Shown here in pieces: positions 5,195 to 62,920 of a stretch of 64,000 nt of DNA. Source of the stretch: Nitrospinia bacterium (lineage in GTDB: Bacteria; Nitrospinota; Nitrospinia; Nitrospinales; JAJDAT01); contig JAJDAT010000005.1 in assembly GCA_029261715.1 (NCBI GenBank), positions 192,487 to 256,486 on the forward strand, given 5' to 3'. How positions within the stretch are numbered: the stretch's first letter is position 1; every line of letters starts with the position of its first letter. Under the pieces are notes generated by a model. It did not search any database. It saw only the letters and a list, made by a program, of their open reading frames with translations, and had not been told where the DNA came from. The position numbers and the translations under genes are program-made.

Positions 5195-8100
5195 ATGAAT
5201 TTTAGTTGTCCGGAGTGTAAAACTGAAAACGAGATCGAATTTGTCGATCCGAATTCAGAAAACCAGAGTGTCGAATGCGTTGCATGTAAGGTTCAATTTG
5301 TAGCGGCAAAGGATGGAAGCTCTAGGGCCGAAGCTATTTCACAAGATATATCGGGAAGAGAAACGCTAACTGCAGACGTGGACATGGGGCAGGTTTCAGG
5401 TTTAGGGCAGGAGCAAGAAGTTTTTGAAGAAGAGCCTGAAAATGTTGATTCGAGCTTTGATCCTGACAATATTGAAAATATGCTGGATCAAATGCTTGAA
5501 GATGACGTTCCAGAAGTTGTTGCTGAACCCGCCGAAGATGCTGAAATTGGTTCTTCTGAAGCTGTTGGTCAAAATTTAGATGTAAGTACGGGAGATTTGA
5601 ACTCCGAAATAGAGGATGGCCCAGAGGTTGTTACCGGTCAAATAGAAGCTAACGATTCTGTTTCTGCTGTTCCAGTAGAGAATACTTTAGACGGAATGTT
5701 AGAAGATATGAGTTTTGGAGGTCTGGATAATGAGGTTGATGACTCTCCAGAGGTTATTATAGATCAAATAGAAGAAGATGCCGAGACACTTTCAGCTCCC
5801 TCAGGAGGAGATGATTTAGATAGTATTTTAGACGGAGTGTTAGGTGATACGAGTTTTGGAAGTCTGGATAATGAGGTTGATGACGCTCCAGAAGTTATTA
5901 CAGATCAAATAGAAGAAGATACCGAGACACTTTCAGCTCCCTCAGGAGGAGATGATTTAGATAGTATTTTAGACGGTGTGTTGACCGATACGGATTTTGG
6001 CGGATTAGATAGCGGGATGGAAGACGCTCCAGAGGTTATTGCCGACCCAAACCAAGAAGAGGTTGAAGAAGCCTTAGCGCAGCCGAGTGAAGAAGATTTA
6101 GATAATGTTCTAGATGGAATGTTGAATAATGATACAGAAAGCGCAGAAGTAGAAGATACCCCGGAAGTTGTCACTGATCCAAATCAAGAGGAGGTTGAAG
6201 AAGCCTTAACGGAGCCAAGCGAAGAAAATTTAGATAATGTTCTAGATGGAATGTTGAACAATGATACAGATTTAGAAGACATAACCACTCAAATAGAAGA
6301 GTCTCCAGAGGTTTTGCAAAACGACCAGCTAAATGAGGTGGTAACTGAGCCTTTATCGGAAAAAACTATAGAAACCGCTCAAAATTCCGATATGGAAACT
6401 ATTTCTCCTGAAATTTCAGAAGCAGTTGATAATATTAATGAGGATACTGAAGAACCTGAGGGGAATGAGGAATCAGAAGAAGATATTTTAAATTCGCTAA
6501 AAGAAGAAATGGGATTAGATGATTTATTTGGCGATGATGAAGATGATTTGGACGAACCAGAATCGAAACCTGATGAAAAAATAGATGAGAAAGCTGAGGC
6601 TGAACTTGAAAATACAGTTGAAGAGCCGGAATTACCAATTCCAGTTCCTGAATCAATTGAAGATGAGCAGCCGCAAGTAGAAGCAAAAAATGAAAGCTCA
6701 GAAGAAATTGCAGCTTCAGAAGATGTTCCAGAAGAGAGTGATGGACAAGATGAAATTGAACGAATGCTGGATGATGATATTCAAGGAGATGCAGAGATAA
6801 CGCAAGAAGCGTCGCAAGAATCAAAAGAAGAAAATGCAACAATTGAAGAAAAACTTGACGAAATTTGGGATGATACCGTTAATACTAGTAACGAAGTGAT
6901 TGAAGAGCCCAAAGAAAACTTAAAACCCAATTCAGAGGACCATACCGTGGCAGAAGAAAAACCGGAAGAATCCGAAGACGATCTTTGGGCGAAAGCATTT
7001 GCTGAACAGGACGACTTGAATAAAGATCAAGAAGCTCCGAAAGAAGAAGGTTCAGGAAAAGAAGAAGATTCAGGAACAGAAGGAAGCGATGATGACCTTT
7101 GGGCGCAAGCTTTTGCTGAGCAAGACGACCTGAATAAAGATCAAGAAGCTCCGAAAGAAGAAGATTCAGGAAAAGAAGAAGATTCAGGAGCAGAAGGCGG
7201 CGAAGAAGATCTTTGGGCGCAAGCTTTTGCCGAGCAAGACGAACTTAATAAAGACAAAGAGGCCCCTAAAGATGAAGGAGCAGGATCCGAGGAGTCGGAA
7301 GAAGATCTTTGGGCGCAAGCTTTTGCCGAGCAAGATGAACTTAATAAGGAAAAAGAACCTGAAGACTCAGAAGCAGTCGACTCTGTTGATACTGCTGAAG
7401 AAGATCATGAGCAAGTAGCCCCTGAAGAAGATGAAGCAGCGCTTGCAGTAGCCGCAGAAGAAGTGAACGCGTCCGAAGATGATATGGATGTGACGGGTGG
7501 CATTAAAGAAGAAGATTATGAGGATGAAGAAGACGAAGCTGATGCAGAGGGTGAGGAAGAGGAAGAGGCAGATGCTGGAGGCATTCGAGAAGAAGATTAT
7601 GAAGACGATGAAGATGAAGAAGAGGATGACTACGAGGAAGAAGACGAACCAAGAAGAAAAATAGGTCCCATTCCCATTCCAGCGAGCACCCTCGGCAAAG
7701 CCCTTATGGGAGCTAGCTTAGCCGCTGTTTTAATTACGGCTGGAGGGTTTTATTTTGGTATTCAAAAGTTCATGCCTGAGGAGGTAGCGAAATATATACC
7801 ATTTCTTAAAAAAGATGTTCCACCAGAAGAAGGCGTCGTTTCTAAAGAAGAAGGCATGGAAGGCGCCTCAGAGGCTGGAAAAGAAGAGGACCCGAATCAA
7901 ACTGAAGAAGCAAATCCAGACGCTCTAAATCTAGCAATGGAAGGAGAAGAGAGTGCGGAGCCTTCTAAAGAAGAGATGGCGAAGAAAGCGGAAAGCGGAG
8001 ATATAAAATCCGCAGAAACCCCAAAAGAAGCGGAATCGACTTCCGAAAAGCCCGCGCAACAAGAGCAAACAGAAAAATCCGCAACCGCGTCCGCTAATAC

Positions 8101-8620
8101 AGAAGAACAAGCAAAAGCTATGCAAGCGGAACAACCAGCTTCTGCAGAAACAGAAAAGCCTAAAGAAAAAGAGAAGCCCCTTATTTTAGGCTCTGAAGAG
8201 AAAGGATCGGAAGAAGCCAAAGATGTCACCAAAGCTTTGCAGGCTGCTTTAGGAGATAAAGGCGAGGCTTCAGTCGACCCTGATTCAGGATTACTAGCCG
8301 CTCTATCACCAACTGAAAAAACGATAATGTTTGGAACCATTATGCCCGTTGCTTATAACATTAACGATATCCGAGTTTTAAGCTTTGATTTACAGGTCGA
8401 ATTAGATAACGGCAAAACTGCAAAATTGATCAGAGAAGCCTTGCCGGTTTATGAAAAAATTATGGTCGATACGGTAGAAAAGTTTCTTGAGAAGAAATTT
8501 TATAACGACATTTTGTATGTAAAAGAAAAACTTCAAAAACAACTTCAGAAAAACTTCAATAAATCAATTAAGGGTGGTCGTGTAAAAAAAGCTAAATTCA
8601 AAGAGTTTACGATCCAATAA
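5195..8620 (+). CDS. Giant acidic protein: N-terminal zinc ribbon, repetitive D/E-rich region, single TM, C-terminal FliL-like domain
   Basis: CPEC...CVAC; TM LMGASLAAVLITAGGFYFGI; C-terminus RVLSFDLQVELDN...LP...KEKLQKQL...GRVKKAKFKEFTIQ fits the FliL pattern. Confidence 0.75.
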   Translation: MNFSCPECKTENEIEFVDPNSENQSVECVACKVQFVAAKDGSSRAEAISQDISGRETLTADVDMGQVSGLGQEQEVFEEEPENVDSSFDPDNIENMLDQMLEDDVPEVVAEPAEDAEIGSSEAVGQNLDVSTGDLNSEIEDGPEVVTGQIEANDSVSAVPVENTLDGMLEDMSFGGLDNEVDDSPEVIIDQIEEDAETLSAPSGGDDLDSILDGVLGDTSFGSLDNEVDDAPEVITDQIEEDTETLSAPSGGDDLDSILDGVLTDTDFGGLDSGMEDAPEVIADPNQEEVEEALAQPSEEDLDNVLDGMLNNDTESAEVEDTPEVVTDPNQEEVEEALTEPSEENLDNVLDGMLNNDTDLEDITTQIEESPEVLQNDQLNEVVTEPLSEKTIETAQNSDMETISPEISEAVDNINEDTEEPEGNEESEEDILNSLKEEMGLDDLFGDDEDDLDEPESKPDEKIDEKAEAELENTVEEPELPIPVPESIEDEQPQVEAKNESSEEIAASEDVPEESDGQDEIERMLDDDIQGDAEITQEASQESKEENATIEEKLDEIWDDTVNTSNEVIEEPKENLKPNSEDHTVAEEKPEESEDDLWAKAFAEQDDLNKDQEAPKEEGSGKEEDSGTEGSDDDLWAQAFAEQDDLNKDQEAPKEEDSGKEEDSGAEGGEEDLWAQAFAEQDELNKDKEAPKDEGAGSEESEEDLWAQAFAEQDELNKEKEPEDSEAVDSVDTAEEDHEQVAPEEDEAALAVAAEEVNASEDDMDVTGGIKEEDYEDEEDEADAEGEEEEEADAGGIREEDYEDDEDEEEDDYEEEDEPRRKIGPIPIPASTLGKALMGASLAAVLITAGGFYFGIQKFMPEEVAKYIPFLKKDVPPEEGVVSKEEGMEGASEAGKEEDPNQTEEANPDALNLAMEGEESAEPSKEEMAKKAESGDIKSAETPKEAESTSEKPAQQEQTEKSATASANTEEQAKAMQAEQPASAETEKPKEKEKPLILGSEEKGSEEAKDVTKALQAALGDKGEASVDPDSGLLAALSPTEKTIMFGTIMPVAYNINDIRVLSFDLQVELDNGKTAKLIREALPVYEKIMVDTVEKFLEKKFYNDILYVKEKLQKQLQKNFNKSIKGGRVKKAKFKEFTIQ
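5690..6270 (+). repeat. Intragenic tandem repeats (141-bp and 132-bp periods)
   Basis: GTCTGGATAATGAGG recurs at 5721 and 5862; GATAATGTTCTAGATGGAATGTTGAA recurs at 6101 and 6233. Confidence 0.85.
6970..7350 (+). repeat. Four intragenic repeats encoding DLWAxAFAEQDxLNK
   Basis: CTTTGGGCG at 6983, 7097, 7211 and 7307 (periods 114, 114, 96 bp). Confidence 0.9.
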
Positions 8621-8985
8621 AACGGTCCACCCGTAGTACCTTTACCTTCCTTTGCTTCCTAAAAATATTTTTGCGTTATTATTTACCCTTTTTTTACTAT
8701 CTGTTTCTAGCTTTTATCAAAAATTATGGCAAATAAACGTAATTTCTGGTTTTTAGCATAAGAAAACCAATTAAAACATTAATATATATAGTTTTATGTT
8801 TAATTTTAGTTAGTGATTTTTAGATAAAACTTTGCTGAATTAGTTGAATTTAGATGTTTTTTACTTAAATAAAGAAGAAATTTCTAAAATTAGTGAGATT
8901 TATTTTTTATCTTTTTGCAGAAATTGGTTATAATAAAAAAACCTCGAAATTAAAGAACAAATAGGTACCGATATTGAAAAAAGTG

Positions 8986-9015
8986 TTGACATTGTAAGGA
9001 CTTAGAGGATACGAT
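8986..9015 (+). promoter_or_regulatory. Sigma70-type promoter for the M23 gene
   Basis: TTGACA-N18-TACGAT. Confidence 0.5.
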
Positions 9016-9054
9016 TCTTTCGGAAAAATATTTGTGAATTTATAGGAGTACAGG

Positions 9055-9984
9055 GTGTCAAATAAACATTACAGAATTGTGGTATTTCCTGGCGACACGC
9101 TCAAGCCTAAAAAATATAAGTTACCAAAAGTTTTGATTCCAGTTTGCCTCTTCACAATGGCTTTATTTTTGGTAGGCATATCGGGAACCATCTATTATTT
9201 TTCTACGGGTTATTTTAAACTAAAATCTGATACGGCCCAGTTAGCGCAATTAAGAAGAGAGACCAAACTCCAAAAAATTCAGGTTGAACAGTTTTCGCAA
9301 CAAGTAAAAAACTTTGAAACGGAAATGTCGCGTTTAGCGCGATTTGAAAAAAAATTAAGAACCATAACAGCCTTAGAAAACTCTCCAAAATCGTTAGAAA
9401 AAAACTGGGGAGTTGGTGGGCCATATGGGTTGACTTCTCATAGTTTTGCGACTTCCCTTGAAAAAGAAGCTGGCGCGATGGTGAATCGGTTGTCTACCGA
9501 TCTAGATTTACTATCGAATCAAGCAAAAATTCAAAGCATTAGTTTCCAAGAGTTAGATGAATTTTTTAAAAATCAATCCTCCATGTTAGCGTCGATTCCA
9601 TCCGTTTGGCCTATCAGAGGATGGGTGACATCTGGTTTTGGTTTTAGAAAGTCTCCTTTCACTGGTTTAAGAGAAAAACACGAAGGATTAGATATTGCAG
9701 CTAGATCTGGATCTCCGGTAAGAACGCCGGCGGATGGTACTGTTGTTGTTGCTGGAAAAGAATATGGTTATGGGAATATGGTGGAAATCGATCACGGTTA
9801 TGGTTTTATTTCTAGATTTGGTCATAACTCAAAGCATTTGGTAAAGGTAGGCGACAAAGTTAGTCGAGGTCAAATTATTGCTCTCGTCGGCAACACTGGT
9901 AGAAGCACAGGGCCTCATTTGCATTATGAAGTAATCTTTAACGGGATTCCCGTTAACCCAAAGAATTATATTTTAGAAGAATAA
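9055..9984 (+). CDS. M23 family metallopeptidase (TM, coiled coil, LytM domain)
   Basis: HEGLD and STGPHLHYEV motifs; GGAG RBS before GTG. Confidence 0.92.
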   Translation: MSNKHYRIVVFPGDTLKPKKYKLPKVLIPVCLFTMALFLVGISGTIYYFSTGYFKLKSDTAQLAQLRRETKLQKIQVEQFSQQVKNFETEMSRLARFEKKLRTITALENSPKSLEKNWGVGGPYGLTSHSFATSLEKEAGAMVNRLSTDLDLLSNQAKIQSISFQELDEFFKNQSSMLASIPSVWPIRGWVTSGFGFRKSPFTGLREKHEGLDIAARSGSPVRTPADGTVVVAGKEYGYGNMVEIDHGYGFISRFGHNSKHLVKVGDKVSRGQIIALVGNTGRSTGPHLHYEVIFNGIPVNPKNYILEE

Positions 9985-22282: not shown

Positions 22283-23101
22283 TCAATCCAATGCAGCGTC
22301 TAGTTTAACAAACGCTTCTTCGCTTTTTAGTTCCAAAAAATAAGGCGTTTCGACAATTCGGTTTGTGGAAGGATCGGGATTGATGTTGATAACTTTAGTT
22401 TCTCTGTCTTGAAGACCTAAGGCGATGTAATCGTTGGTTGGAACTGAGCCAGAGCTTCCTACCATAATAACTAAATCCGGTAGTTCCTGTAGGAATATAG
22501 CAAAGTTCTCTTCTTGTTCTGGGTGCCCCACATATTCACCGTCCCCAAACATAAGGATATGTGGACGCGCAATTCCTCGACATTGCCAGCAAGAAGGATA
22601 ATTAGACGCTTTCATGGTGTCGTAATCTAAATCGCAAAGAGGAACGGCTGGTTCGTCCCAAAAACCGTAAGAACAAGTATCCAGACATTGTAACCGCCAC
22701 ATAGAACCGTGAACTTCTTTCACTTTATTTTCCGGCGCGCCCGATTTAATGTGAAACCCGTCCGTGTTTGTCGTGTGAATAAAGCTGTCATGAAAACGGG
22801 ATTCCATCCATTCGTTAACGATATGGTAGCCTTCATGTGGTTGGTTTTCCTCCGCGTTGCGGCGACGCCATTCATAAAAAGCCCAGGCGTGTTGCAATTC
22901 GTTACGAAAAGCCCACGGACTGGCCAAGTCTTGCGCTTCCAGGTTTTTTTCTTTAAATGGAGGGAAGTTATTCCAGTAACCTTCTTTATCGCGAAAAGTA
23001 GGAATGTTCGAATCCGCGCTCATTCCTGCGCTGGTTAAAAACAACACGCGACGCGCGTTAGAAATCAAAGCAGCCGCTTCTTGAATTTTTGAATCAGGCA
23101 T
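22283..23101 (-). CDS. Sir2/CobB-type NAD-dependent deacylase
   Basis: SAGMSADSNIPTFR, TNTDGFH, EVHGS, CxxxC/CxxC zinc site, RPHILMFG, GSS, ININP. Confidence 0.9.
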   Translation of the reverse strand: MPDSKIQEAAALISNARRVLFLTSAGMSADSNIPTFRDKEGYWNNFPPFKEKNLEAQDLASPWAFRNELQHAWAFYEWRRRNAEENQPHEGYHIVNEWMESRFHDSFIHTTNTDGFHIKSGAPENKVKEVHGSMWRLQCLDTCSYGFWDEPAVPLCDLDYDTMKASNYPSCWQCRGIARPHILMFGDGEYVGHPEQEENFAIFLQELPDLVIMVGSSGSVPTNDYIALGLQDRETKVININPDPSTNRIVETPYFLELKSEEAFVKLDAALD

Positions 23102-23750
23102 GACCGTCCCACTCCTTTAGAAAACGATCCACATACTCTTGCATATATTGATGCCGTTCTTCGGCGATCCTTTTCCCTGTATCCGTGTTCATGCGATCTT
23201 TCAATAATAAAAGTTTCTCGTAAAAATGATTGATCGTATGCCCTTTATTTTTTTTATAGGCCTCAAAGCTATCGTGCATCACTGGCGGTTCGTCAGGATG
23301 ATACATCAACCGATTTTTGTTGCCGCCATACGAAAATGCGCGTCCAATACCAACCGCGCCAATAGCGTCCAATCGATCCGCATCCTGCACCGCTTTACCT
23401 TCCAATGAATTCATAGGAGTGGCAACACCTGCTCCTTTGTAAGATATGGTAGCTACGATATCTTTAACCTGGTCGATAGTGGATTGATCCGCACCTATGC
23501 TATTCAACCATTCTTCTGCCTTTTTAGGACCAATAGTGTCGTCGCCATCGTGGAACTTCCAGTCGGCAATGTCATGGAGTAAAGCGCCCAGTTCCGCGAC
23601 CGTTTTGTTAGCGCCTTCATCTTCGGCGATACGTTGCGACATTTTCCAGACACGGTAGATATGTTGATAATCGTGACCCGACCCTTCGCCTTCGAAAAGG
23701 TGTTCAACGTGGTCGCGAGTTTTTTCGATCCATTCATCGTGAGAAGCCAT
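23094..23750 (-). CDS. HD-domain phosphohydrolase (YedJ/YpgQ-like)
   Basis: GHDYQHIYRV, LLHDIAD, VQDADRLDAIGA, HFYEKLL; overlaps the Sir2 start. Confidence 0.92.
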   Translation of the reverse strand: MASHDEWIEKTRDHVEHLFEGEGSGHDYQHIYRVWKMSQRIAEDEGANKTVAELGALLHDIADWKFHDGDDTIGPKKAEEWLNSIGADQSTIDQVKDIVATISYKGAGVATPMNSLEGKAVQDADRLDAIGAVGIGRAFSYGGNKNRLMYHPDEPPVMHDSFEAYKKNKGHTINHFYEKLLLLKDRMNTDTGKRIAEERHQYMQEYVDRFLKEWDGHA

Positions 23751-23882
23751 TTATTTGAAAAATCCTTCATTCTATAGAGTCATTTGATGACGCTATTATA
23801 AACTGTTAATACCAATTTACCGATAGCATTTGTCGAAAGATTTATATTTAGATATTTTGGGTAAAATTAATTCTCAGCTTTA

Positions 23883-24061
23883 CCGCAAAGGCGCAAAGAG
23901 CGCAAAGGATTTAAGTCAAAGGTAATTTTCTCTAAGGCTCCTACATTACGTGCAAGAATATTTGCACGTCATTCTGGAGGAGCCCTAGAAGGGCGACGAA
24001 GAATCTAGGTATTATTCTTCCTCCTGTGTTTTTCGGAGCTTGTGCTGAGCTTGCCGAAGTA
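23883..24061. repeat. Cluster of short intergenic repeat motifs at the island boundary
   Basis: CCGCAAAGGCGCAAAGAGCGCAAAG (23883-23907); GTCATTCTGGAGG...GACGAAGAATCT (23968-24006); GCTGAGCTTGCCGAAG (about 24045-24060). Confidence 0.55.
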
Positions 24062-24153
24062 TCTTCTATGGCCGCTCTTGATTTCTTTTTAATCTTTCCG
24101 TATTGTAGGTCGATTCTGAAGGCAAAAAAATATTTCCAAATACCAAAGACTCT

Positions 24154-26145
24154 ATGAAAGTATTTATCAGCTACACTTACGATGACGAAAAGCATAGTGA
24201 TCGAGTTTTAGCTCTTTCCAACCAACTACGCGAGGATGGAGTAGATTGCTGGATAGATCAATATGAAAAAGGACTTCCAAAAAAAGATTGGCCTCTCTGG
24301 ATGGAAGAAAAAGTTGAAGAATCGCGATATACCTTGGTTGTTTGTACCGCAATCTACCATAAAAGGTTTTATCGAAGAGAAGATTCAGGAAAGGGGAAAG
24401 GAGCGACTTGGGAAGGAGCAATTATTACGAATCAAATTTATAATTCCTATTGCCAAAACACTAAATTTATACCAGTTGTATTTTCTGAAGATGATTTAGA
24501 TAAAATACCGACGATTCTAAAAGGCACTACTAATTTTATACTGAAAAAGAAATATGAAGATCTTTTGCGGTTGTTGACAGGACAACCGAAAGCTGAACCT
24601 AAACCTGTTGGATCGATTAAAAAGTTATCTAAAAAAAATGAGAAAATATTGGAATTAGATCCTGAAGATCCTTTTGAAGAATTTATCCAAGATCGTATTA
24701 AGCAGTTCATTCCCTGTGAATATTTTTTAGATGAAATTCAAAATTTTATTGAGAGACAAGAAAAAGGATTTGTGTCTATTGAAGGGAAAGGGGGAATTGG
24801 TAAAAGCGCTCTTCTTTCATATTACATTAAAACAATTAATAAAGATTGTATCTATCACTTTAATTTTTATAAAGATGGGATTAGTACTCCGGAATATTTT
24901 ATGAGATCAATTAGTGAAAAGTTGATTGATAAATATGAGATTGAATACCAAATTCCTGAAAACTTATCAGAGAACGTAGATTTATTTTATTCTTTATTGA
25001 GACAAGCTGGCAAAAAAGCCTTAGCCAATGGGAAGAAGTTAGTCATAGTAATAGATGCATTAGACGAAGTTAATACAGAGAAGGAAAACGACCTTTCGAA
25101 TAATTTAAGGCTTCCTACTAATAAGCTTCCCAAGGGAGTTTTTTTCGTATTGACCTCTCGCGGAATAAAATATTTACCTAATGATTCTTTATTATTGTCT
25201 ATGGATAATAAAAATAAAGAACTTAAAGAAACCATTAGAAAGTATATTGAATATGCGGATAAAAATAATGAGGAAGTCCATCAATGGAGGCTAGAGCAAA
25301 ACCTAGGGCTTGAAGAGTTCACAAATAAACTTGAAGTGAAAAGTGAACATAACTTTATGTATTTATGTCACGTTTTTGGAGATTTGAAAGCTTTTAGACT
25401 TAATGAACTTCCAAAAGGACTAGAGAGTTATTACAACCAACAAGTTGACCGAATGGAAATCCAAGGCGAAGAAGGAGAAAAAAAAACAAAAATTCTTTCG
25501 TGTTTGGCGGCGTTTTCTAGAGAAATCTCCATATTTCGTATATCGCAGCTTACAGGTTTTGGTTTATATGAAATCAATCGAGCTATTAGTGGTTGGTGTA
25601 GACAAAAAATATTGACGGAAATCAAAATCAATGGAGAAACCTTTTTGAAGGTTTATCACAAAGCATTTAATGATTTTCTTCTTACTTCTTACGAGTTAAG
25701 ACATGCTTCAAAAGAGAGGGAGTTGATAGAGTATTCTCAGAAACTATTTGGGGAAGATGATTGGGAGTATGGCTTTACGGGGCAAATTAAAGGACTTCCT
25801 GAAGTTCTTCAAAAAGAATATCTAGAACTGCTTACTTTTTCACTTATCGAAGCTAAGAAAAAAACGGAAATTCTTAAAGTACTTAAAAGTAAAGTGTTTC
25901 TGCTTGCTAAATTAAAACTATGTTATCACGGAAATTTAATAGACGACATAAGGGGAGCTAATAGTCTACTAAGTAATAGTGATGAGCTTTGTAGAGAAGA
26001 TCTCGCAAAAACTTTATTTGATCTAGTTGAATTAAAAGATAATGAAATAACTTTTGAAACGATAAGGCATTCATTGGAAGGTTTTGATGATGATCTATTG
26101 GGTGCTTTTATTTTAATCAAGTCGAGAATCCAAAATGAGTTTTAA
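24154..26145 (+). CDS. SEFIR/TIR domain fused to a STAND-like (NACHT/AAA_16) P-loop ATPase
   Basis: KVFISY...LREDGVDCWIDQY...W..WM...LVVC...GKGATWEG...KFIPV (SEFIR); Walker A GKGGIGKS; Walker B LVIVIDALDE; ...NFMYL...LPKGLESYY helical region. Confidence 0.85.
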   Translation: MKVFISYTYDDEKHSDRVLALSNQLREDGVDCWIDQYEKGLPKKDWPLWMEEKVEESRYTLVVCTAIYHKRFYRREDSGKGKGATWEGAIITNQIYNSYCQNTKFIPVVFSEDDLDKIPTILKGTTNFILKKKYEDLLRLLTGQPKAEPKPVGSIKKLSKKNEKILELDPEDPFEEFIQDRIKQFIPCEYFLDEIQNFIERQEKGFVSIEGKGGIGKSALLSYYIKTINKDCIYHFNFYKDGISTPEYFMRSISEKLIDKYEIEYQIPENLSENVDLFYSLLRQAGKKALANGKKLVIVIDALDEVNTEKENDLSNNLRLPTNKLPKGVFFVLTSRGIKYLPNDSLLLSMDNKNKELKETIRKYIEYADKNNEEVHQWRLEQNLGLEEFTNKLEVKSEHNFMYLCHVFGDLKAFRLNELPKGLESYYNQQVDRMEIQGEEGEKKTKILSCLAAFSREISIFRISQLTGFGLYEINRAISGWCRQKILTEIKINGETFLKVYHKAFNDFLLTSYELRHASKERELIEYSQKLFGEDDWEYGFTGQIKGLPEVLQKEYLELLTFSLIEAKKKTEILKVLKSKVFLLAKLKLCYHGNLIDDIRGANSLLSNSDELCREDLAKTLFDLVELKDNEITFETIRHSLEGFDDDLLGAFILIKSRIQNEF

Positions 26146-26159
26146 TTTGGGAGGGTTTT

Positions 26160-27032
26160 TTGCAAAATTTAGATGATCTAGATGAGAGTATTTTGAAAAG
26201 TTTAGGCGAGTTAGAGATTATTGCTAAATCTTTAAGAAATAAAGGAGATTTAAAGGAAAGTGAAAAAATATTTCGATGGATTTTAAGTCAGTATGACAAA
26301 AATAATGTTAAACATTATCTTGATATTTCAAGGAACCTTTATGAAATTGCTTTTATATACAGGACTCAGGGGAAATATGCTGATGGAGCAGCTTATTTTA
26401 ATAAAAGCGCACATTATTCAAAACTTGCTGACGATCAGGTCGGAGATTTAATAGCGCAGTTTTGGATATTATTTACGGAGTTTCATGGATATTTGACAGA
26501 AGCGTCTAAGGTAATATATTTGGGAGGCGAAATATGTCATCAACTTGAAGCTATGGTTCAAGGAAAACGCTTAGAAAGATCAACGTACAATATTATTATT
26601 CACCTTTTTCAAGTTTGTGTTGAAGATGGCAACAAAACTGAGGCAGAAAGATATTTTCTAAAATATATTGATCATTCGTTTCACAAAGAAATAGAAAATT
26701 ACGATTCAGAAAAAATCATGAAACTTGGGATTGAAGGGCAGTTTGCTTTTGTTAAAGGAAATTGGGAAGAGGTGATTAATTGTTTGGGCCGATTTTTGAA
26801 CATTGACATAGGCGTTGAGCAAGAGATCAGTTTGGTGAAAATTTCTGATTCGATTCATGAAATGGCGAGAGAATATTGGTATTTAGGAAGAGCATTAGAA
26901 GAAATGGAGAGAAAAGATCAGGCAATACAGTCATTTAATTTAGGGTTAGATCTCCCTGATGATTTACGCAATCGATATTTTAAGGAAAAAATACGAAAAG
27001 AATTAAAACGATTGAATAGATTTTATCGATGA
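26160..27032 (+). CDS. TPR-repeat protein, paralog A
   Basis: TPR-like helices (LYEIAFIYRTQGKYADGAAYFNKS; YWYLGRALEEMERKDQAIQSFNLGL); GGGAGG RBS; starts 14 nt after the ATPase stop. Confidence 0.8.
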   Translation: MQNLDDLDESILKSLGELEIIAKSLRNKGDLKESEKIFRWILSQYDKNNVKHYLDISRNLYEIAFIYRTQGKYADGAAYFNKSAHYSKLADDQVGDLIAQFWILFTEFHGYLTEASKVIYLGGEICHQLEAMVQGKRLERSTYNIIIHLFQVCVEDGNKTEAERYFLKYIDHSFHKEIENYDSEKIMKLGIEGQFAFVKGNWEEVINCLGRFLNIDIGVEQEISLVKISDSIHEMAREYWYLGRALEEMERKDQAIQSFNLGLDLPDDLRNRYFKEKIRKELKRLNRFYR

Positions 27033-27087
27033 TTTTTTTTCTAAATTTATTATCGTTTTTAAATTTGGATTTCAGGAATTAGATCTA

Positions 27088-27945
27088 GTGGAAATTGATA
27101 TGAATCCCGTGTGGAAAGATTTGGATGATCTAGAAATTATCGCGAAATCCCTGAGAAATAAAGGGAATTTAAAAGAAAGTGAAAAGATTTTTTGGTGGAT
27201 TTTGAATCAATATGACAAAGAGGATTCTAAGTATTTTCGGAGTATTTCTAGAAACCTTTTTGAAATTGCTTATATACATGTAGTTCATGGTCAATATGAA
27301 GAAGGGGCAAATTTTTTTGAAAAGAGTGTCGATTACTCAAAACGAATAAACGACCAGATAGGTGAATTGATTGGAAGGTTTTGGGAGTTTTTTTCAAAAT
27401 TTCTTGGAAAATTAAAAACGGCCTCAGAAGTTAGAGCTTTTGGTGAACAGATTTGTGAAAAATTTGAAGCTTTAAGTAATCAAAAGCTTTCTGAAAGATG
27501 GACATATAATATTATCGATCATTTGTTTCAGATTAGCGCGGAAGAAAATAATAAAACTGAAACGAAAAAGTATTTTAATCGATATGTAAATAATTCGTTC
27601 TACCAGGAAAGAAAAAATAATGAAATTGAAAGAATTAGAGCTCTTTCAAAGAAAGGCCAACTAGCTTTTGTTAATGAAGATTTGGGTGAGGCAATTAAAT
27701 ATTTTGGTAAATTTTTAAATATCAATATCAATGTAAATGTAGAAAAAGACCTCAGCTTAATTAAAGTTTCCGACTCGGTTCATGAGATCTCGAGGGAATA
27801 CTGGTATTTAGGAAGATCCTTAGAAAAGCTTGGCAATAGAAAGTTGGCATTGGAAGCTTTTGATTTAGGATTGGCGCGTCCTTATGAATTACAAAACTTT
27901 TACTACATTGAGAAAATTCGAGAAGAGTTAAAAAAAATAAAATAA
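27088..27945 (+). CDS. TPR-repeat protein, paralog B
   Basis: Collinear homolog of paralog A (shared LEIIAKSLRNKG, ISRNL, REYWYLGR). Confidence 0.8.
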   Translation: MEIDMNPVWKDLDDLEIIAKSLRNKGNLKESEKIFWWILNQYDKEDSKYFRSISRNLFEIAYIHVVHGQYEEGANFFEKSVDYSKRINDQIGELIGRFWEFFSKFLGKLKTASEVRAFGEQICEKFEALSNQKLSERWTYNIIDHLFQISAEENNKTETKKYFNRYVNNSFYQERKNNEIERIRALSKKGQLAFVNEDLGEAIKYFGKFLNININVNVEKDLSLIKVSDSVHEISREYWYLGRSLEKLGNRKLALEAFDLGLARPYELQNFYYIEKIREELKKIK

Positions 27946-27960
27946 AAAAAGAAAAAGTAG

Positions 27961-28201
27961 TATTTCCCCAGTGTTCACATTGAAACTTCTTATAAAAAGT
28001 TTTTTGGATCGATTTTCACTTCTTGGACAATTATAAATAATTGTCTATGGCTTCTTCAAAGCATTGACGCAACCCCTCAACGTCGGTTCCTTTGAAAGTT
28101 GCTAAGCTTCGAATAAACTCAATTTTCCCGTGGAATACCTCGTCTTCTCCATTGTAATGGACCGAACCAAAATAGTCTTTGTATTCCATCATATCTTTCA
28201 T
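27961..28201 (-). pseudogene. hicB: HicB-family antitoxin remnant
   Basis: MKDMMEYKDYFGSVHY...FHGKI...FEEAIDNYL then TAA; a shifted frame continues KKLFIRSFNVNTG, resembling HicB KPFKGSFNVR; no hicA seen. Confidence 0.7.
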
Positions 28202-28299
28202 AGAAATTTCTTTCCTATTAAGCCTCACATAAAGTAAGACTAGAAACTGATATCGAAAAACATGTTAAAATAACCTAAAAGTTTTTACGAGATATTTTT

Positions 28300-28545
28300 A
28301 TGCAAGAAAAGATCACAATAGATTTGCCGGAAGGCGTTCAGCTTCCTTCTGGAATCAACATAGATCAAAATACGCTTCGCTATGCTCTAGCGGGTGTTTT
28401 ATATACTAAGGGCATACTTTCTGGAAAAGAAGCGCGTGAGATTACGGGGGACCCTAGGCGAAAGTTTGAAGAAACAATGAATGAGTTGGGGTTTTGTCTA
28501 ATGCCTGGTAGACAGAAAGATATTGATTCCGAACTAAATGCCTGA
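28300..28545 (+). CDS. UPF0175 family putative antitoxin
   Basis: LAGVLYTKGILSGKEAREITG..RRKFEE; overlaps the PIN gene. Confidence 0.8.
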   Translation: MQEKITIDLPEGVQLPSGINIDQNTLRYALAGVLYTKGILSGKEAREITGDPRRKFEETMNELGFCLMPGRQKDIDSELNA

Positions 28546-29047
28546 GCCATCCAGCAAAACCTCTGGCCAAAGAAGTGTTGTTAGTAATACAGGGCCTTTC
28601 ATTTCTCTCGAAAAAATCACTGACGGTTTTTCTTTACTCCGTAGTTTATATGATCAAGTTTTTATTCCACCTCAAGTACTTTCTGAATTAAGTCCAGCTC
28701 AAAGTTATCTAAAAGATCGAGATCTTGAAAACTTGGTGATAATTGAGACGGTTGTTTTGCCTGAAGATTCCGACCTAGCCCTTTTGGATGCTGGAGAACA
28801 ATACGCTATTGCCCTAGCAATGAAAAAACAACTTCCTCTGTTAATTGAAGAACGCTTGGGACGAGATATTGCCGGAAGTAAGGGGCTAAAAGTTTCTGGA
28901 ATTGGAGGATAAATCGCAAAGGCTAAAGAAATGGACATCCTGGATTTAAATGAAGCTCACGAAAAATTGAAAGAACTGTGGGAAAAAAATCGGATTAATA
29001 CTGCTGTTTATGAACAGCTGAAGTTGAAAATAAATCAATTAAGCTAA
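28538..29047 (+). pseudogene. DUF3368 PIN-domain toxin with an in-frame premature stop
   Basis: VVSNTGPFI, IPPQVLSEL, LDAGEQYAIALA; TAA at 28910-28912, then the frame continues IAKAKEMDIL...RINTAVYEQL to TAA at 29047. Confidence 0.75.
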
Positions 29048-34218: not shown

Positions 34219-35538
34219 TTGAATATTGTTGATTGGGCAACTATTATTGCGGCGGTATTTACTTGTCTTGGTTTTTGTCTTGCAGTTTTTACGTTGGCAT
34301 ATAACAAGATATTCCAAGACACGGGTTCGCGCGCTCGGATGGCAGAATGGCTTCAAAACGATTCTTGGGGAGAAGGCTATCGAAGCTTGCTCGGAGGAGC
34401 ACTCAATTGGCTAGAAAGTAAGATAGATGAAAAACCTCTTCCTCCAATAAACTCCAATTTGAAAACCCAGGGTAAATACTTTTTGAGAGGGAAAGTGTTT
34501 ACTTGGTGGTTCCCGTTTTCTGTTATTTATCCATTAGTCTTAATACTTTTAGAGTGGGTTTTAAGTGGTCAATCGGGATTGATTAGCGACTTGCCAAATG
34601 TGTCAATAGAGAATCGCTGTTTAGCGATCTTAGGTTATTTATTTCTCTTTTATTTATATTTTTTTATTCTAAAAAGTAGAAGAATAATCTATTCCTTTCT
34701 TATTTTTATCCTCATTTCCGCTATCTTTATCAAAATTAACAGTATTATCGCTTTTTCCATATCTTCCGTTCTTTATGTAGCTGCCAATGGCTTTATTCAA
34801 CCGGTTGCCGCTCTTGTTGGGGCTTCTTTTTATGCTGTGCCTATCGTTCTAATTGTTACTTTTGGAGAATTGAAAGGCAAGTTTAATTTGCTTTATGGTG
34901 TTTTTATTTTATTGATTTTTCCTTATCTAAATTGTTTTTTCGATTATTTGTCTTGGGGGGCTAGTCGTTGGTTATTGCATCGAATTGCTAAGAAGGAAAA
35001 TTTTTGGTGGACTTTTTTTTACGGGACTTTTGATTTATTTATTGGAGTGCTATGTCTTTTAGGACTCGCTTTTTGTCTGCCTTTGGCGATTCAATTTTTT
35101 ATTTCATTGATTGGCCCTTCTGTGATTGATCTAAAAAACTATTTAGAAATGATGATACAAGATCCTTTTGGAAGAGGACTGGGCATTACGGGTATGCTTT
35201 TTACGACTTTCATTCCTACGATAATTCATCTGGTTATTGCTCTTATTGCTTTATGTTTGCCTGGTGTTCCTTGGAGAGAAAGTACTGCGGAACGATTAGC
35301 TGTAAAACCCGATAATTTCTTCAATTGCGCTGGGGATATGGTGCGTGTTTTTGGGATCATGTTTATTCCTCCTATTATGGCGATAGTGTTGAGTGTGGTC
35401 ATCTATTTCAATGTTACTTTTATTCGCGAAGGTGTTGGGTGGTTTGGAGGAAAGCTTTATAACATACTATATATGCTATTGGGTTGGTGGGGTAGTGGCC
35501 ACAGAAAAATAGATCGTCTTTCATCATTGCAGAGTTAG
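34219..35538 (+). CDS. Polytopic membrane protein of unknown function
   Basis: 439-aa ORF with about ten hydrophobic segments; motifs NCFFDYLSWGASRWLL and MLFTTFIPTIIH. Confidence 0.75.
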   Translation: MNIVDWATIIAAVFTCLGFCLAVFTLAYNKIFQDTGSRARMAEWLQNDSWGEGYRSLLGGALNWLESKIDEKPLPPINSNLKTQGKYFLRGKVFTWWFPFSVIYPLVLILLEWVLSGQSGLISDLPNVSIENRCLAILGYLFLFYLYFFILKSRRIIYSFLIFILISAIFIKINSIIAFSISSVLYVAANGFIQPVAALVGASFYAVPIVLIVTFGELKGKFNLLYGVFILLIFPYLNCFFDYLSWGASRWLLHRIAKKENFWWTFFYGTFDLFIGVLCLLGLAFCLPLAIQFFISLIGPSVIDLKNYLEMMIQDPFGRGLGITGMLFTTFIPTIIHLVIALIALCLPGVPWRESTAERLAVKPDNFFNCAGDMVRVFGIMFIPPIMAIVLSVVIYFNVTFIREGVGWFGGKLYNILYMLLGWWGSGHRKIDRLSSLQS

Positions 35539-49430: not shown

Positions 49431-50861
49431 TTAATTCTTAGAAAAAGGTTTCCCTGGGAAATTTGGAGTGTTATTAAAAGCCGTATAAGCAGTTTCAAGA
49501 ACGTAAACAATTTCTCTCAACCTTTGGTAAAGGAAGAATTTCTCAATTGATCGAATAGAATAATGGGAAATAAAATAGACTAAAGCTGGACCGGCAAATA
49601 CATTAAAATAAACAAATACGGAGAGAAATTCATGAGAAAGGTTTAGATATGCGAATAATCCAATTATGCAAATTATAAAACCAATGTCAGATAATACTAA
49701 AAGGATTTTAGCGACATACCATGCGGTTGAGGCAAGACGAATGTGAGCTTCGTTACGAATAATGTTTCCAATTCTTTCAGATTGGTTAAACATTAAGCGC
49801 ATTTTTAGAATATTGATGTAGGTTTTACTCCTAAAACTTTTGTTTTCTTCCCAGTTCACAAAAATTAAAAGATAATCCAGACCCCTTTTTTTCAAATAAT
49901 CCCCAAGATATATATATGGGTATTCGACTTCATCCTCATCATCACTTCCAAAATTACTTCTTAATAGTTGCTTTATTTTTTCAATAATACCAAATTCAAT
50001 AAGCAGGTTCGTTTTTTCAGACCATTCTTTTGCATTGTTTTCATTTATCCATTCTTTAATAGTTGGATCGTTAATCATTCCCCTAAAGGTGGTCAAATCG
50101 TCAGAACTTTTTAATAGTTTGTTACGTATAGTTTCAATAAATTTTTTATTTAATTTTTCCTTATTTAAATCTATTTTTTCAGATATATTTTTTATGAAAA
50201 TACCTTCTGAAGAAAATTTTTCTATAAATATTTGGAAAAACCTTTTTTGATTGTGAATTTTTGAATCTTCTTTTAAGAAAATTTTGACTCCCTTTTCTAT
50301 TTCCTCTATCAAATTTTTATTGAAATCTCGTTCTTCAAAAAGTTCCCATATGGTTTTAAAGAACCTGAAGAGAGGAATATAATTTAATTTTTTGCTAATA
50401 GAACCGGGCATGGGTTCTCTAAAAAATTTATCCATAATAAATTTAAAACTTTCTATATCAACATCTTTTGGATCTCTTCTAAAAAAAGTTAGGCCTAGAA
50501 AATAAGCTAGGATGAAGAATAGAATCAGCAAACCAAACCAAATGATTCCTGGGGTACCCTTAACAGAATTAAGGAAATTAGTAAAATCGTCTAAGAAATA
50601 ATAAATTACCTTAGGACTTTTAATTTCTGATTGGTCGGAAAATGATTTTTCTGATTGTTCAAGATTCTTGACTTCCAACTGATTTGAAAAAGTTAAATGC
50701 AGAGAATGAGTCGGCGCAATTAGTGCGGTAAATGCGCCAACCAAAAATAAAACCCCTGGAAGAAGGCCACCTAAAAAATCAATAAGGAATCCTTCTGATC
50801 GAAATTTAGAATTTAGAGTGCGTTGAAGAGTCGGATTGAAATTTGTAGATTCAAATGGCAT
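49431..50861 (-). CDS. Hypothetical membrane protein (about 2+2 TM with a large soluble middle)
   Basis: 476-aa AT-rich ORF; DFLGGLLPG near the N-terminus, RNEAHIRLAS near the C-terminus. Confidence 0.7.
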   Translation of the reverse strand: MPFESTNFNPTLQRTLNSKFRSEGFLIDFLGGLLPGVLFLVGAFTALIAPTHSLHLTFSNQLEVKNLEQSEKSFSDQSEIKSPKVIYYFLDDFTNFLNSVKGTPGIIWFGLLILFFILAYFLGLTFFRRDPKDVDIESFKFIMDKFFREPMPGSISKKLNYIPLFRFFKTIWELFEERDFNKNLIEEIEKGVKIFLKEDSKIHNQKRFFQIFIEKFSSEGIFIKNISEKIDLNKEKLNKKFIETIRNKLLKSSDDLTTFRGMINDPTIKEWINENNAKEWSEKTNLLIEFGIIEKIKQLLRSNFGSDDEDEVEYPYIYLGDYLKKRGLDYLLIFVNWEENKSFRSKTYINILKMRLMFNQSERIGNIIRNEAHIRLASTAWYVAKILLVLSDIGFIICIIGLFAYLNLSHEFLSVFVYFNVFAGPALVYFISHYSIRSIEKFFLYQRLREIVYVLETAYTAFNNTPNFPGKPFSKN

Positions 50862-51877: not shown

Positions 51878-52793
51878 TTAAAAAAAACTAAGTAGATATC
51901 TGGGGTTAAATAACCAAATCATAAAAGCAATATAGGCTATAACTATGTAAATCATGAAACCAAGTTCCAATATTTTAATGAATAAACTTTCTGGTTCCGA
52001 TCCCTTACTTCCTTTTTCAAGAATTACTTCTCCTGTAAATAGTGAAAACGCCCAAAATGCTAAACCAGTATAAAATCTTATTAAAAAGTCTGTTACCTCC
52101 TTTTTAATAAAATCCCAAAAACCTTCAATAGGTGTTATTAATTGAAACTCAGGGACCCAGGAAATGGTAATCAAAAGATAAAATGAAACGATAAAGATAT
52201 AGAATTTAAAACCATCAAAGCCTCTGGCTTTTAATTGAGGCAACATTGCCGCAAATATAAGGAATAATAGATATTGTCAGCCCCTTACCCAAAAAACGAA
52301 TCCATAAAGCATGAAGAACTATTGGGCCAAGAGCAAAAATAATAAATAAGAAAATTGAACGAGCAGAGTTAAAGAATTTAGAACCAGGTCCCAAAATTTT
52401 TTGATTGTATTTTTTTAAAGTACTATTTTTGCGATCTGGAAAGGTTAGTACCCATGGGAAAAGTAATATACGAGGATCCTGAATTTTTATATGACAATTA
52501 ACATTCAATTCGTCAAAAGTTGTTAGTCTATAGTTTAAGTCAGTTATATAAATATTCAGATACCAATGGATGCTAAGAATTACAAGGGGGCTAATTGCTA
52601 GGAAAGTCTCAATGGGAACCTCGCCTGGAATTATTGGTAGCTTTAGTTTCCCGTTGGTCTCACTGGCAAATGCTGTAATTAAAATATAGATAGAGGTAAC
52701 AACTAAAAGAAATAACAAATTCCGGGCATGTTTTGAAGCCTCTTCAATCGACTTGACTAGCAGATCAAATCCTTTTTCATCCGTTATCAGCAT
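51878..52793 (-). pseudogene. Frameshifted membrane protein gene (two overlapping ORFs)
   Basis: ORFs 52215-52793 and 51878-52246 overlap; the hydrophobic segment ISIIPYI continues as AAMLPQ in the shifted frame. Confidence 0.55.
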
Positions 52794-61955: not shown

Positions 61956-62083
61956 ACCTGCCAAATTCGCGTTTTCCTTTCTCCTCGAAAAGGATATAAT
62001 CTAATCTTTTCAGCTAAACTTAGAGTTTTGCCCGCATGCGCAAAATTTTCTCGCATAGAATTTTTTATCAAGGAAGTATATTC

Positions 62084-62920
62084 ATGGAATTAAAAAGGAA
62101 TCGTTTTTCCTTCATTTTTTTGTTTGCTATAGGAATCGTGTTTTTGTCTGCTTGTCAAGAGTCTGAAGTGAAGCCTCAAAAACCCTTGACTCTAAATATG
62201 GACGTGCCAAAACCAGTTTTGGTTAAAAAATCTAAAGTAAAACCAAAAAATATTCCAGAAATCCAGAAATCCGATCTTAAATTTCAGGTGGCCAACGCGG
62301 CGATTAAAAAAGATTTATCTGAAAGGCCTATAAAAGACAGAAAAAACTGTAACCTTAGGGTCGATGAAATTGAAAAAGAAAAAAACAAGGTCCAAACGGC
62401 TGGCGGGTTTTGGGGGAGAATAGAAAGTACAAAAGATTTTAAAGACTATTCGCCAATTGGTGTGAAGATAGACGCTAAATTTAATCAGCTTATTTTTGGG
62501 TTGCGTCATTTATGCGATACCGCTATGGGATTGGATCTTACACACGTTGCGAAAGAGTTAATTAAAGAGTCTAAAGGAAGAAGTACAGAAGAACTGGTGA
62601 AGATGTTAGAGTCAACAGGTAAGGCTAAAGCGGATATTGAGATATATCTTAAATACGTAGAGTTTGCTAAAAGATCCCAAAATAGATTACTTGAATACTC
62701 TTCGATCCAGGAGACCCTTTTGTGGGTTGATATGTTTGTCGATCAATATAGTAAGTTTTTTAATGGAAAGTTAGCGGATAAAGAGCGCATAGATCAAGCA
62801 ATGCCCGATGTACTCGCTTTTAAAGATGCCTTAGAGCGTTTCTCTGTTGAGAATGAAAATATTAAAATCGCTATTATGGAAGATTTTCAAGTCCCATATT
62901 TCTACGTAACGGAAATGTAG
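62084..62920 (+). CDS. Hypothetical lipoprotein
   Basis: Lipobox FLSAC; AGGAAG before ATG at 62084. Confidence 0.7.
   Translation: MELKRNRFSFIFLFAIGIVFLSACQESEVKPQKPLTLNMDVPKPVLVKKSKVKPKNIPEIQKSDLKFQVANAAIKKDLSERPIKDRKNCNLRVDEIEKEKNKVQTAGGFWGRIESTKDFKDYSPIGVKIDAKFNQLIFGLRHLCDTAMGLDLTHVAKELIKESKGRSTEELVKMLESTGKAKADIEIYLKYVEFAKRSQNRLLEYSSIQETLLWVDMFVDQYSKFFNGKLADKERIDQAMPDVLAFKDALERFSVENENIKIAIMEDFQVPYFYVTEM

Follow-up and report, generated by a model that had tools for sequence, protein, structure and literature searches.

A sensor-less SEFIR-NACHT ATPase gene with two adjacent TPR genes: a candidate split NLR-like defense system in a Nitrospinia bacterium

In the literature cited here, the sensor of characterized bacterial NLR-like receptors forms part of the receptor chain itself, and the most extensive survey of such receptors covered same-chain sensors only. 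Here we describe a three-gene operon in a 64,000-nucleotide stretch of a Nitrospinia bacterium genome (GenBank assembly GCA_029261715.1, contig JAJDAT010000005.1, positions 192,487 to 256,486; "the window" is this whole stretch, and positions count from its first letter). Gene 1 encodes a SEFIR-NACHT ATPase that ends before any sensor, and genes 2 and 3 encode two stand-alone tetratricopeptide repeat (TPR) proteins, TPR1 and TPR2. We propose, at a probability of roughly 55%, that the operon is a fissioned bacterial NLR for abortive anti-phage defense, with TPR sensors acting in trans and NAD+ depletion as the outcome. Comparisons with published systems refer to the accessible parts of the cited sources.

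The SEFIR defense system protects against phi29 and depletes NAD+ (10.1101/2022.05.11.491447, 10.1101/2024.02.11.579819), and it is recognized by an N-terminal SEFIR domain that scores above TIR (10.1101/2022.05.11.491447). Gene 1 showed this ranking, with Pfam SEFIR at 60.6 bits (amino acids [aa] 1 to 139; cut-off, 23) and TIR_2 at 48.5 bits. The PADLOC bSEFIR model also matched gene 1 (E 1e-46, 158.4 bits). However, single-chain NB-ARC paralogues scored higher (160.8 and 172.1 bits), and the bSEFIR model therefore does not define this operon. No PADLOC model matched gene 2 or gene 3, and automated tools may call the operon "SEFIR" and miss the TPRs. The described SEFIR system is a single protein (10.1101/2022.05.11.491447), whereas the unit here has three genes, and the partners are homologous to the fused sensor of relatives.

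Avs2 and Avs7 (PMC13581612) and NIR-Avs2 (10.64898/2026.09.04.749371) have in common with this locus the effector-STAND-TPR logic, an NADase effector with a catalytic Glu, and a His in the winged-helix domain (WHD) that latches ADP, the last two being putative in gene 1. In contrast, Avs proteins are single chains, while this operon encodes the sensor apart from the ATPase and in two copies. Avs models scored far below cut-off on gene 1 (NCBIfam Avs1b, 16.6 bits versus 1500; PADLOC Avs1b covered the NTPase only), the PADLOC models being the 2023 set, without Avs7 to Avs24. The sensor survey in PMC13581612, whose classification holds 589 STAND clades and 90 sensor clusters, was built on C-terminal regions of 400 aa or more within one chain and would therefore omit a split layout. 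In its accessible text, "split" occurs once, for Avs7-sensor proteins in the methods. Accession stems of the relatives described below were unmatched in seven of its supplements, and its large tables may list this clade.

Gene 1 resembles the TEP1/NWD/NPHP3-like branch of bacterial NACHT (bNACHT) proteins in its D[GAS]hDE signature, an NPHP3_N match above cut-off, a WHD, and a probable APAF1_C-like second helical domain (HD2). DUF4062/NIR, reported to be an anti-phage NADase, occurs in TEP1 and NWD1/2 (10.64898/2026.09.04.749371) and likewise in fused relatives of gene 1. bNACHT proteins are described as tripartite single chains that rarely lie in operons, and "split" occurs 0 times in the accessible text describing them (10.1101/2022.07.19.500537). 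The same-chain C-terminal sensor of bNACHT is missing here: gene 1 stops, and the TPRs lie in separate open reading frames (ORFs).

A preliminary description of this DNA had loosely likened the operon to NAIP/NLRC4 or to plant sensor/helper pairs, where several sensors also serve one executioner. The partners in those pairs are full NLRs with their own NTPase or nucleotide-binding domain. Genes 2 and 3 gave Pfam TPR matches only, the TPR1 model is all-helical, and neither holds an NTPase; the likeness thus fails, and the operon fits a fissioned single NLR rather than a sensor/helper pair. CARD-NLR systems presumably have CARD or protease partners; Pfam matched no such partner in the operon and no in-chain TPR in the ATPase. 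CARD-NLR/LypABC (PMC13236601) is likewise a multi-gene STAND operon, but LypB holds ATPase and TPR in one chain. The two-gene nSTAND2 system (PMC8195603; see also PMC7159879) is another, and its layout differs in that both genes are STAND modules, unlike the TPR-only genes here. Our literature search, with subscription papers and several large supplements outside its scope, found no NACHT with a separately encoded TPR-only sensor. The earlier view that the operon is not a recognized named system must be qualified, since the bSEFIR model matches gene 1.

Architecture of the operon

The three genes lie on one strand with gaps of 14 nt (genes 1 and 2) and 55 nt (genes 2 and 3) (Table 1). The gene 1 stop codon lies at 26143-26145, genes 1 and 2 are offset by one base in frame, and no canonical slippery heptamer was seen by eye ahead of the stop. 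For gene 3, the database call is an alternative ATG start at 27100, giving 281 aa. Across the three genes, Logan contigs from 4/4 runs showed neither differences nor gaps; these runs come from one study, are not independent, and may be the source of the DNA itself. An assembly error at the gene junction was considered and was not seen in these four assemblies. The three-gene operon is real. Its GC content is 31.9%; the flanks have 42.0% and 41.0%, and the genome as a whole 38.7%. Only 0.7% of 5163 same-size genome windows were as low. Promoter and terminator scans performed at chance level (16 found versus 17.9 expected).

These results bear out the preliminary description of a compact, AT-rich, same-strand operon in which gene 1 ends at 663 aa, holds the Glu of GATWEG and the Walker motifs GKGGIGKS and IVIDALDE, and is followed by two paralogous TPR proteins of about 290 aa. 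They also bear out its claim that gene 1 has no recognizable sensor, since the Pfam scan of gene 1 found no TPR, WD40, or LRR domain.

Table 1. Positions of the operon, its parts, and surrounding features in the window (other contigs where named)
Feature	Position	Strand	Description and evidence
Gene 1	24154..26145	+	663 aa; SEFIR, NACHT nucleotide-binding domain, HD1, WHD, HD2; Pfam, PADLOC, alignment
Gene 2, stand-alone TPR sensor 1 (TPR1)	26160..27032	+	290 aa, TTG start; Pfam, structure model, family homologues
Gene 3, stand-alone TPR sensor 2 (TPR2)	27088..27945	+	285 aa from GTG; Pfam
SEFIR and linker, aa 1-165	24154..24648	+	Glu87 at 24412-24414; 5Y8E alignment, C39 paralogue identity
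Walker A GKGGIGKS, aa 211-218	24784..24807	+	sequence, alignment
Walker B DALDE, aa 301-305	25054..25068	+	sequence (IVIDALDE, D301-E305), alignment
HD2, APAF1_C-like helical domain, ~aa 522-637	25717..26064	+	weak Pfam; alignments; predicted TPR docking site
GGAGG Shine-Dalgarno	26150..26154	+	5 nt ahead of gene 2 TTG; sequence
TPR1 aa 15-47, candidate shared docking helices	26202..26300	+	85% identical to TPR2, synonymous sites saturated
Variable slot	23828-29021		between HD-domain gene and small Cys-rich gene
Short dispersed repeat patchwork, left slot edge	23879..24072	.	many genome-wide matches
hicB remnant, 3'-truncated, abuts operon end	28031..28228	-	83% DNA identity to G012 HicB
UPF0175 antitoxin-like gene and PIN-like gene	28300..29044	+	in-frame stop 28910-28912 in PIN-like gene
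Sir2-family gene	22283-23750	-	overlaps HD-domain gene beside slot
SEFIR-NB-ARC-TPR genes in this genome (G000)	C5:284386, C39:7274, C2:2630(-), C48:14079 and 16447, C20:20750(-)		

In gene 1, Glu87, which lies in GATWEG, aligned to a Glu in the SEFIR structure 5Y8E, from Bacillus cereus, and is, by analogy with TIR domains, the presumed catalytic residue. NPHP3_N matched aa 190 to 336 (47.9 bits; cut-off, 24.8), which makes the NACHT of the NPHP3/TEP1-like type. G214, G216, and K217 of the Walker A motif were invariant across 54 aligned relatives, and DALDE at residues 301 to 305 conforms to the NACHT Walker B signature D[GAS]hDE (10.1101/2022.07.19.500537). Arg336 and His502 were conserved in the same alignment, His502 invariantly; the winged helix in which it lies, after the AAA+ core, was placed by alignment only, colinear with relatives through His502. 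The APAF1_C match over HD2 was weak (13.3 bits; cut-off, 22.8), and the aligned region of the fused relative P0190 scored 24.2. Gene 1 stayed colinear with fused relatives to about residue 658, ending in their pre-TPR linker.

The SEFIR domain appears to have a separate history from the rest of gene 1. Residues 1 to 165 were identical at 109/165 positions to a resident SEFIR-NB-ARC-TPR paralogue on contig C39, and the DNA was 73% identical over 519 nt, including about 60 nt upstream. Past the SEFIR domain and linker, similarity fell to the level seen between STAND clades. The SEFIR domain was apparently grafted from the resident family, and the simplest history would be recombination of an incoming NACHT//TPR cassette onto a resident SEFIR. 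The genome holds six other single-chain SEFIR-NB-ARC-TPR genes; the expansion is lineage specific and extends to the same-genus genomes G012 and G014. The copy on C20 lacks both the SEFIR Glu and the N-terminal portion of the ATPase, yet its synteny is kept in G012, and one C48 copy ends early.

TPR1 and TPR2 are 52% identical over 278 aa. The TPR1 model is a 15-helix superhelix (pLDDT 95.3). A fold search with it returned generic superhelices only (LGN, KLC, APPBP2, MalT III, and Rap), MalT domain III being second best (rmsd 3.8, 265 aligned residues). Avs chains were not among the matches listed, which excludes nothing, and an ESM Atlas search gave generic TPR clusters. Between the two genes, the proportions of differing synonymous (pS) and nonsynonymous (pN) sites were 0.74 (saturated) and 0.25, and dN/dS was about 0.13 (range 0.07 to 0.21, from the 280/500 bootstraps that were unsaturated). 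By these sequence measures, the duplication is old, and both paralogues are under purifying selection.

Identity between the twins is uneven. Residues 15 to 47 were 85% identical, versus 42 to 56% elsewhere (permutation p 0.003), while family conservation there was not raised (0.30 versus 0.25 to 0.34 elsewhere). Recent gene conversion was considered as the source of this similarity and is unlikely, with a pS of 0.92 in the segment, from only 17 sites. In fused chains, the equivalents of aa 15 to 47 are the helices next after HD2. Because this segment is the most alike and follows HD2 in fused chains, the first TPR helices are likely the docking surface that both proteins share on gene 1. Outside it, the 42 to 56% identity suggests that the two TPRs probably widen the range of triggers.

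Homologues of the TPR proteins and recurrence of the split

A search with TPR1 against 1.84 billion representatives gave 340 matches, and most of the best 150 of these covered only a generic TPR stretch. Among all fetched proteins, family-profile matches over more than 170 positions comprised 37 distinct rows: 23 short (genes 2 and 3 included), 7 NACHT fused, and 7 intermediate. The fused proteins are NPHP3_N-NACHT-HD2-TPR single chains, three of them with DUF4062. An eighth fused form was found in genome G1288, with an N-terminus that we take to be SAM-like. That the same TPR family ends single-chain NACHT proteins supports the reading of the stand-alone TPRs as the detached sensor of gene 1's ATPase family.

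DNA context was readable for two other stand-alone homologues, and both (2/2) follow a sensor-less NACHT gene of the same clade. In Nitrosomonas aestuarii Nm36 (locus L004), the reading frame of a 716-aa NACHT runs into the beginning of the TPR gene; at L005, in a metagenome-assembled genome of Pseudomonadaceae, the frame of a 660-aa NACHT does so through an ATGA overlap. Both NACHT proteins stop shortly past HD2, as gene 1 does. The split is not a local accident: it recurs in these two other genomes. The earlier claim that the sensor is encoded in trans from the ATPase thus gains from both its homology to the fused sensor and the adjacent sensor-less NACHT at these loci. A neighborhood survey had been proposed to find one or more TPR paralogues beside ATPase homologues; adjacency held at both readable loci, and duplication did not recur. 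L004 and L005 carry one TPR copy per genome, neither ATPase has a SEFIR domain, and the combination of SEFIR with two sensors is confined to this locus among the three.

The two other modules adjoin TraG/type IV coupling protein (T4CP) genes; one also has a serine recombinase nearby, and the other a type I restriction-modification (R-M) system. As two-gene modules, they lie within small integrative elements with TraG/T4CP and conjugation-like genes. In L005, a 185-aa gene (8936-9493, + strand) lies 23 nt past the TPR gene and has no Pfam or PADLOC match. Its RxxxxH motif suggests, on our assumption, a HEPN RNase, and it could be a trans effector of that module.

In a 13-row ATPase tree, gene 1, L004, L005, and the fused proteins P0149 and P0201 grouped together with 95/96 support, and the two fused proteins branched from within the split members. 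An approximately unbiased (AU) test rejected monophyly of the split forms alone (p-AU 2e-5), and a 40-row quick tree agreed. In the TPR tree, TPR1 and TPR2 grouped together (100/100), sister to the L004, L005, P0149, and P0201 sensors (86/84 at the joining node). This order matches the ATPase tree, with weaker support at the joining node.

Among six plasmid matches of the wider ATPase family, three stop at the winged helix, with a separate downstream gene for a WD40/propeller protein (H2 and H4) or a long, helical-looking protein (H3); the remaining three were a fused form, a fragmented one, and one truncated by the end of its record. A profile of HD2 found a match at the N-terminus of the partner in H2 (E 1e-6), whereas those of the H3 and H4 partners were unmatched. 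With splits after HD2 and after the winged helix, and nested fused forms, this branch seems to break at either of two linkers and also to regain the fused state. The winged-helix splits with WD40 or helical partners downstream lie at L032:3666-8380, L033:4197-8862, and L034:4818-10034. L032 adjoins a caspase-family gene; in L034, the WD40 gene is followed by another small ATPase of this type.

Genomic setting and distribution

The operon occupies a variable slot whose contents differ in four same-genus genomes, being toxin-antitoxin (TA) pairs (TumE-type, HicAB, PemK, and UPF0175/PIN) or STAND genes. The slot is empty (about 156 bp) in G015, holds TA pairs in G012, and in G014 holds a single-chain SEFIR-NB-ARC-TPR gene that spans a contig break, its halves joined by inference. 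G012 has an intact 112-aa HicB where the window has a remnant. We take the gene downstream of the UPF0175 antitoxin-like gene to be PIN-like; Pfam gave no match on the fragment. As earlier described, the operon thus lies between repeat scars upstream and decayed TA genes (the truncated hicB and the stop-bearing PIN-like gene) downstream. No terminal repeats marking a mobile element were found around it.

The Sir2/HD-domain gene pair beside the slot is conserved in same-genus genomes and is therefore probably housekeeping and not part of the system. Elsewhere in the window, a 1141-aa ORF (5195-8620, + strand) with strong purine skew had no Pfam match, and four ORFs of 192 to 476 aa (34219-35538, 49431-50861, 52215-52793, and 62036-62920) had none at E 0.001.

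In six genome surveys, the TPR profile matched in 1/190, 1/251, 1/120, 1/401, 2/401, and 1/128 genomes, counts that are not absences since only the top 5 to 20 candidates per genome were scored. All matches were the survey centre genomes except G1288. No TPR-family relatives were found in plasmids or among viral contigs (0/127 pattern matches), and pattern scans, whose patterns are narrow, confirmed 2/14 genome and 1/174 metagenome candidates. The TPR family is rare and patchy, which fits mobile defense cargo and limits neighborhood statistics to three loci.

Proposed mechanism, alternatives, and meaning

In the proposed fissioned receptor, gene 1 would supply switch and effector, and genes 2 and 3 its sensor domain as separate, long-duplicated chains. 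Each TPR would dock through its first helices on gene 1 HD2, restoring the single-chain layout. The resting NACHT would be locked on ADP, the WHD His502 being kept. By analogy with Avs7 (PMC13581612), a phage protein in the TPR groove would free the ADP lock, ATP would bind, and the ATPase would oligomerize. As in the SEFIR system, clustered SEFIR domains would then cleave NAD+ through Glu87 and the infected cell would be arrested. The two TPRs would share a dock and answer to different triggers.

Several observations weigh against this proposal. At a position near the nucleotide site, gene 1 has Cys188, whereas the four nearest relatives and at least 90% of all relatives have Arg, and no Shine-Dalgarno sequence was found within 25 nt ahead of the gene 1 start. 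The TA genes beside the operon are decayed. Duplicated TPRs occur at 1/3 split loci, this one, and 19/21 other short homologues are without context, some of them maybe contig fragments, which leaves three split loci. The L004 and L005 N-termini are unrelated to SEFIR or to each other, one being weakly HTH-like (0.84), and the output of the family therefore need not be an NADase. Long branches affect the 13-row ATPase tree, and other family pairs have high-identity windows elsewhere (e.g., 25/33 in a 49% pair).

The TPRs could instead act as a guard or antitoxin that holds an auto-active SEFIR-NACHT off, with defense set off once host shut-off or a phage protein takes them away; the second copy would then serve as a spare, as a decoy, or as one member of an obligate TPR1-TPR2 pair rather than as a second specificity. 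In apo Avs7, the TPR C-lobe keeps the NTPase closed (PMC13581612), and an inhibitor on a separate chain might be titrated away or lost; the N-terminal segment that the TPRs share is compatible with every model where both contact gene 1. However, the divergence of the superhelices suits different ligands better than pure redundancy, and the clade also includes fused relatives, whose sensor cannot come away. We regard this inhibitory arrangement as unlikely, although ahead of the two that follow. A split STAND switch outside phage defense, whether a mobile-island regulator or a SEFIR-STAND-TPR family member sensing a cellular ligand, would accommodate the non-enzymatic-looking N-termini of the related split ATPases, the six resident genes (one Glu-less yet syntenic), and the rank of the sensor domain of the regulator MalT among TPR1 fold matches (Z 18.2). 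Those matches are generic, MalT included, and Glu87 is kept in gene 1; the family is also very patchy, with one new match over six surveys of 120 to 401 genomes each, and occupies variable slots that also carry TA and R-M genes. On balance, a non-defense switch seems rather improbable.

Least probable is that a single-chain SEFIR-NACHT-TPR gene is in decay or has recently suffered a frameshift, the extra TPR copy being incidental and no trans system at work. The one-base offset of genes 1 and 2, their rough colinearity with fused relatives, the lost Arg188, and the pseudogenes nearby would suit such decay. Against it, the split is shared by loci in two unrelated genomes, a GGAGG site of its own precedes gene 2, and all three ORFs are intact. 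The TPR duplication is old by its synonymous saturation, with low dN/dS, and the one-study assemblies agree on a junction where no slippery heptamer was seen.

A broader and more tentative extension of the fissioned receptor, one that we hold to be possible but doubtful, is a plug-in NLR. Its NACHT clade would alternate between fused and split states, the split being old; sensors would be duplicated or swapped on the HD2 dock and effectors swapped at the N-terminus, with a host-derived SEFIR NADase here serving two TPRs for two different phage proteins. If true, this would amount to multi-input NLR signaling without sensor NTPases.

Because the sensor could be deleted cleanly, a natural split would allow a direct test of whether it acts as activator or inhibitor. 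If the sensors do act in trans, ligand binding would be relayed to the NACHT switch across a non-covalent interface. The operon would then represent a class of receptors that present detection tools overlook, and it would show in nature how a single executioner can work with interchangeable sensors.

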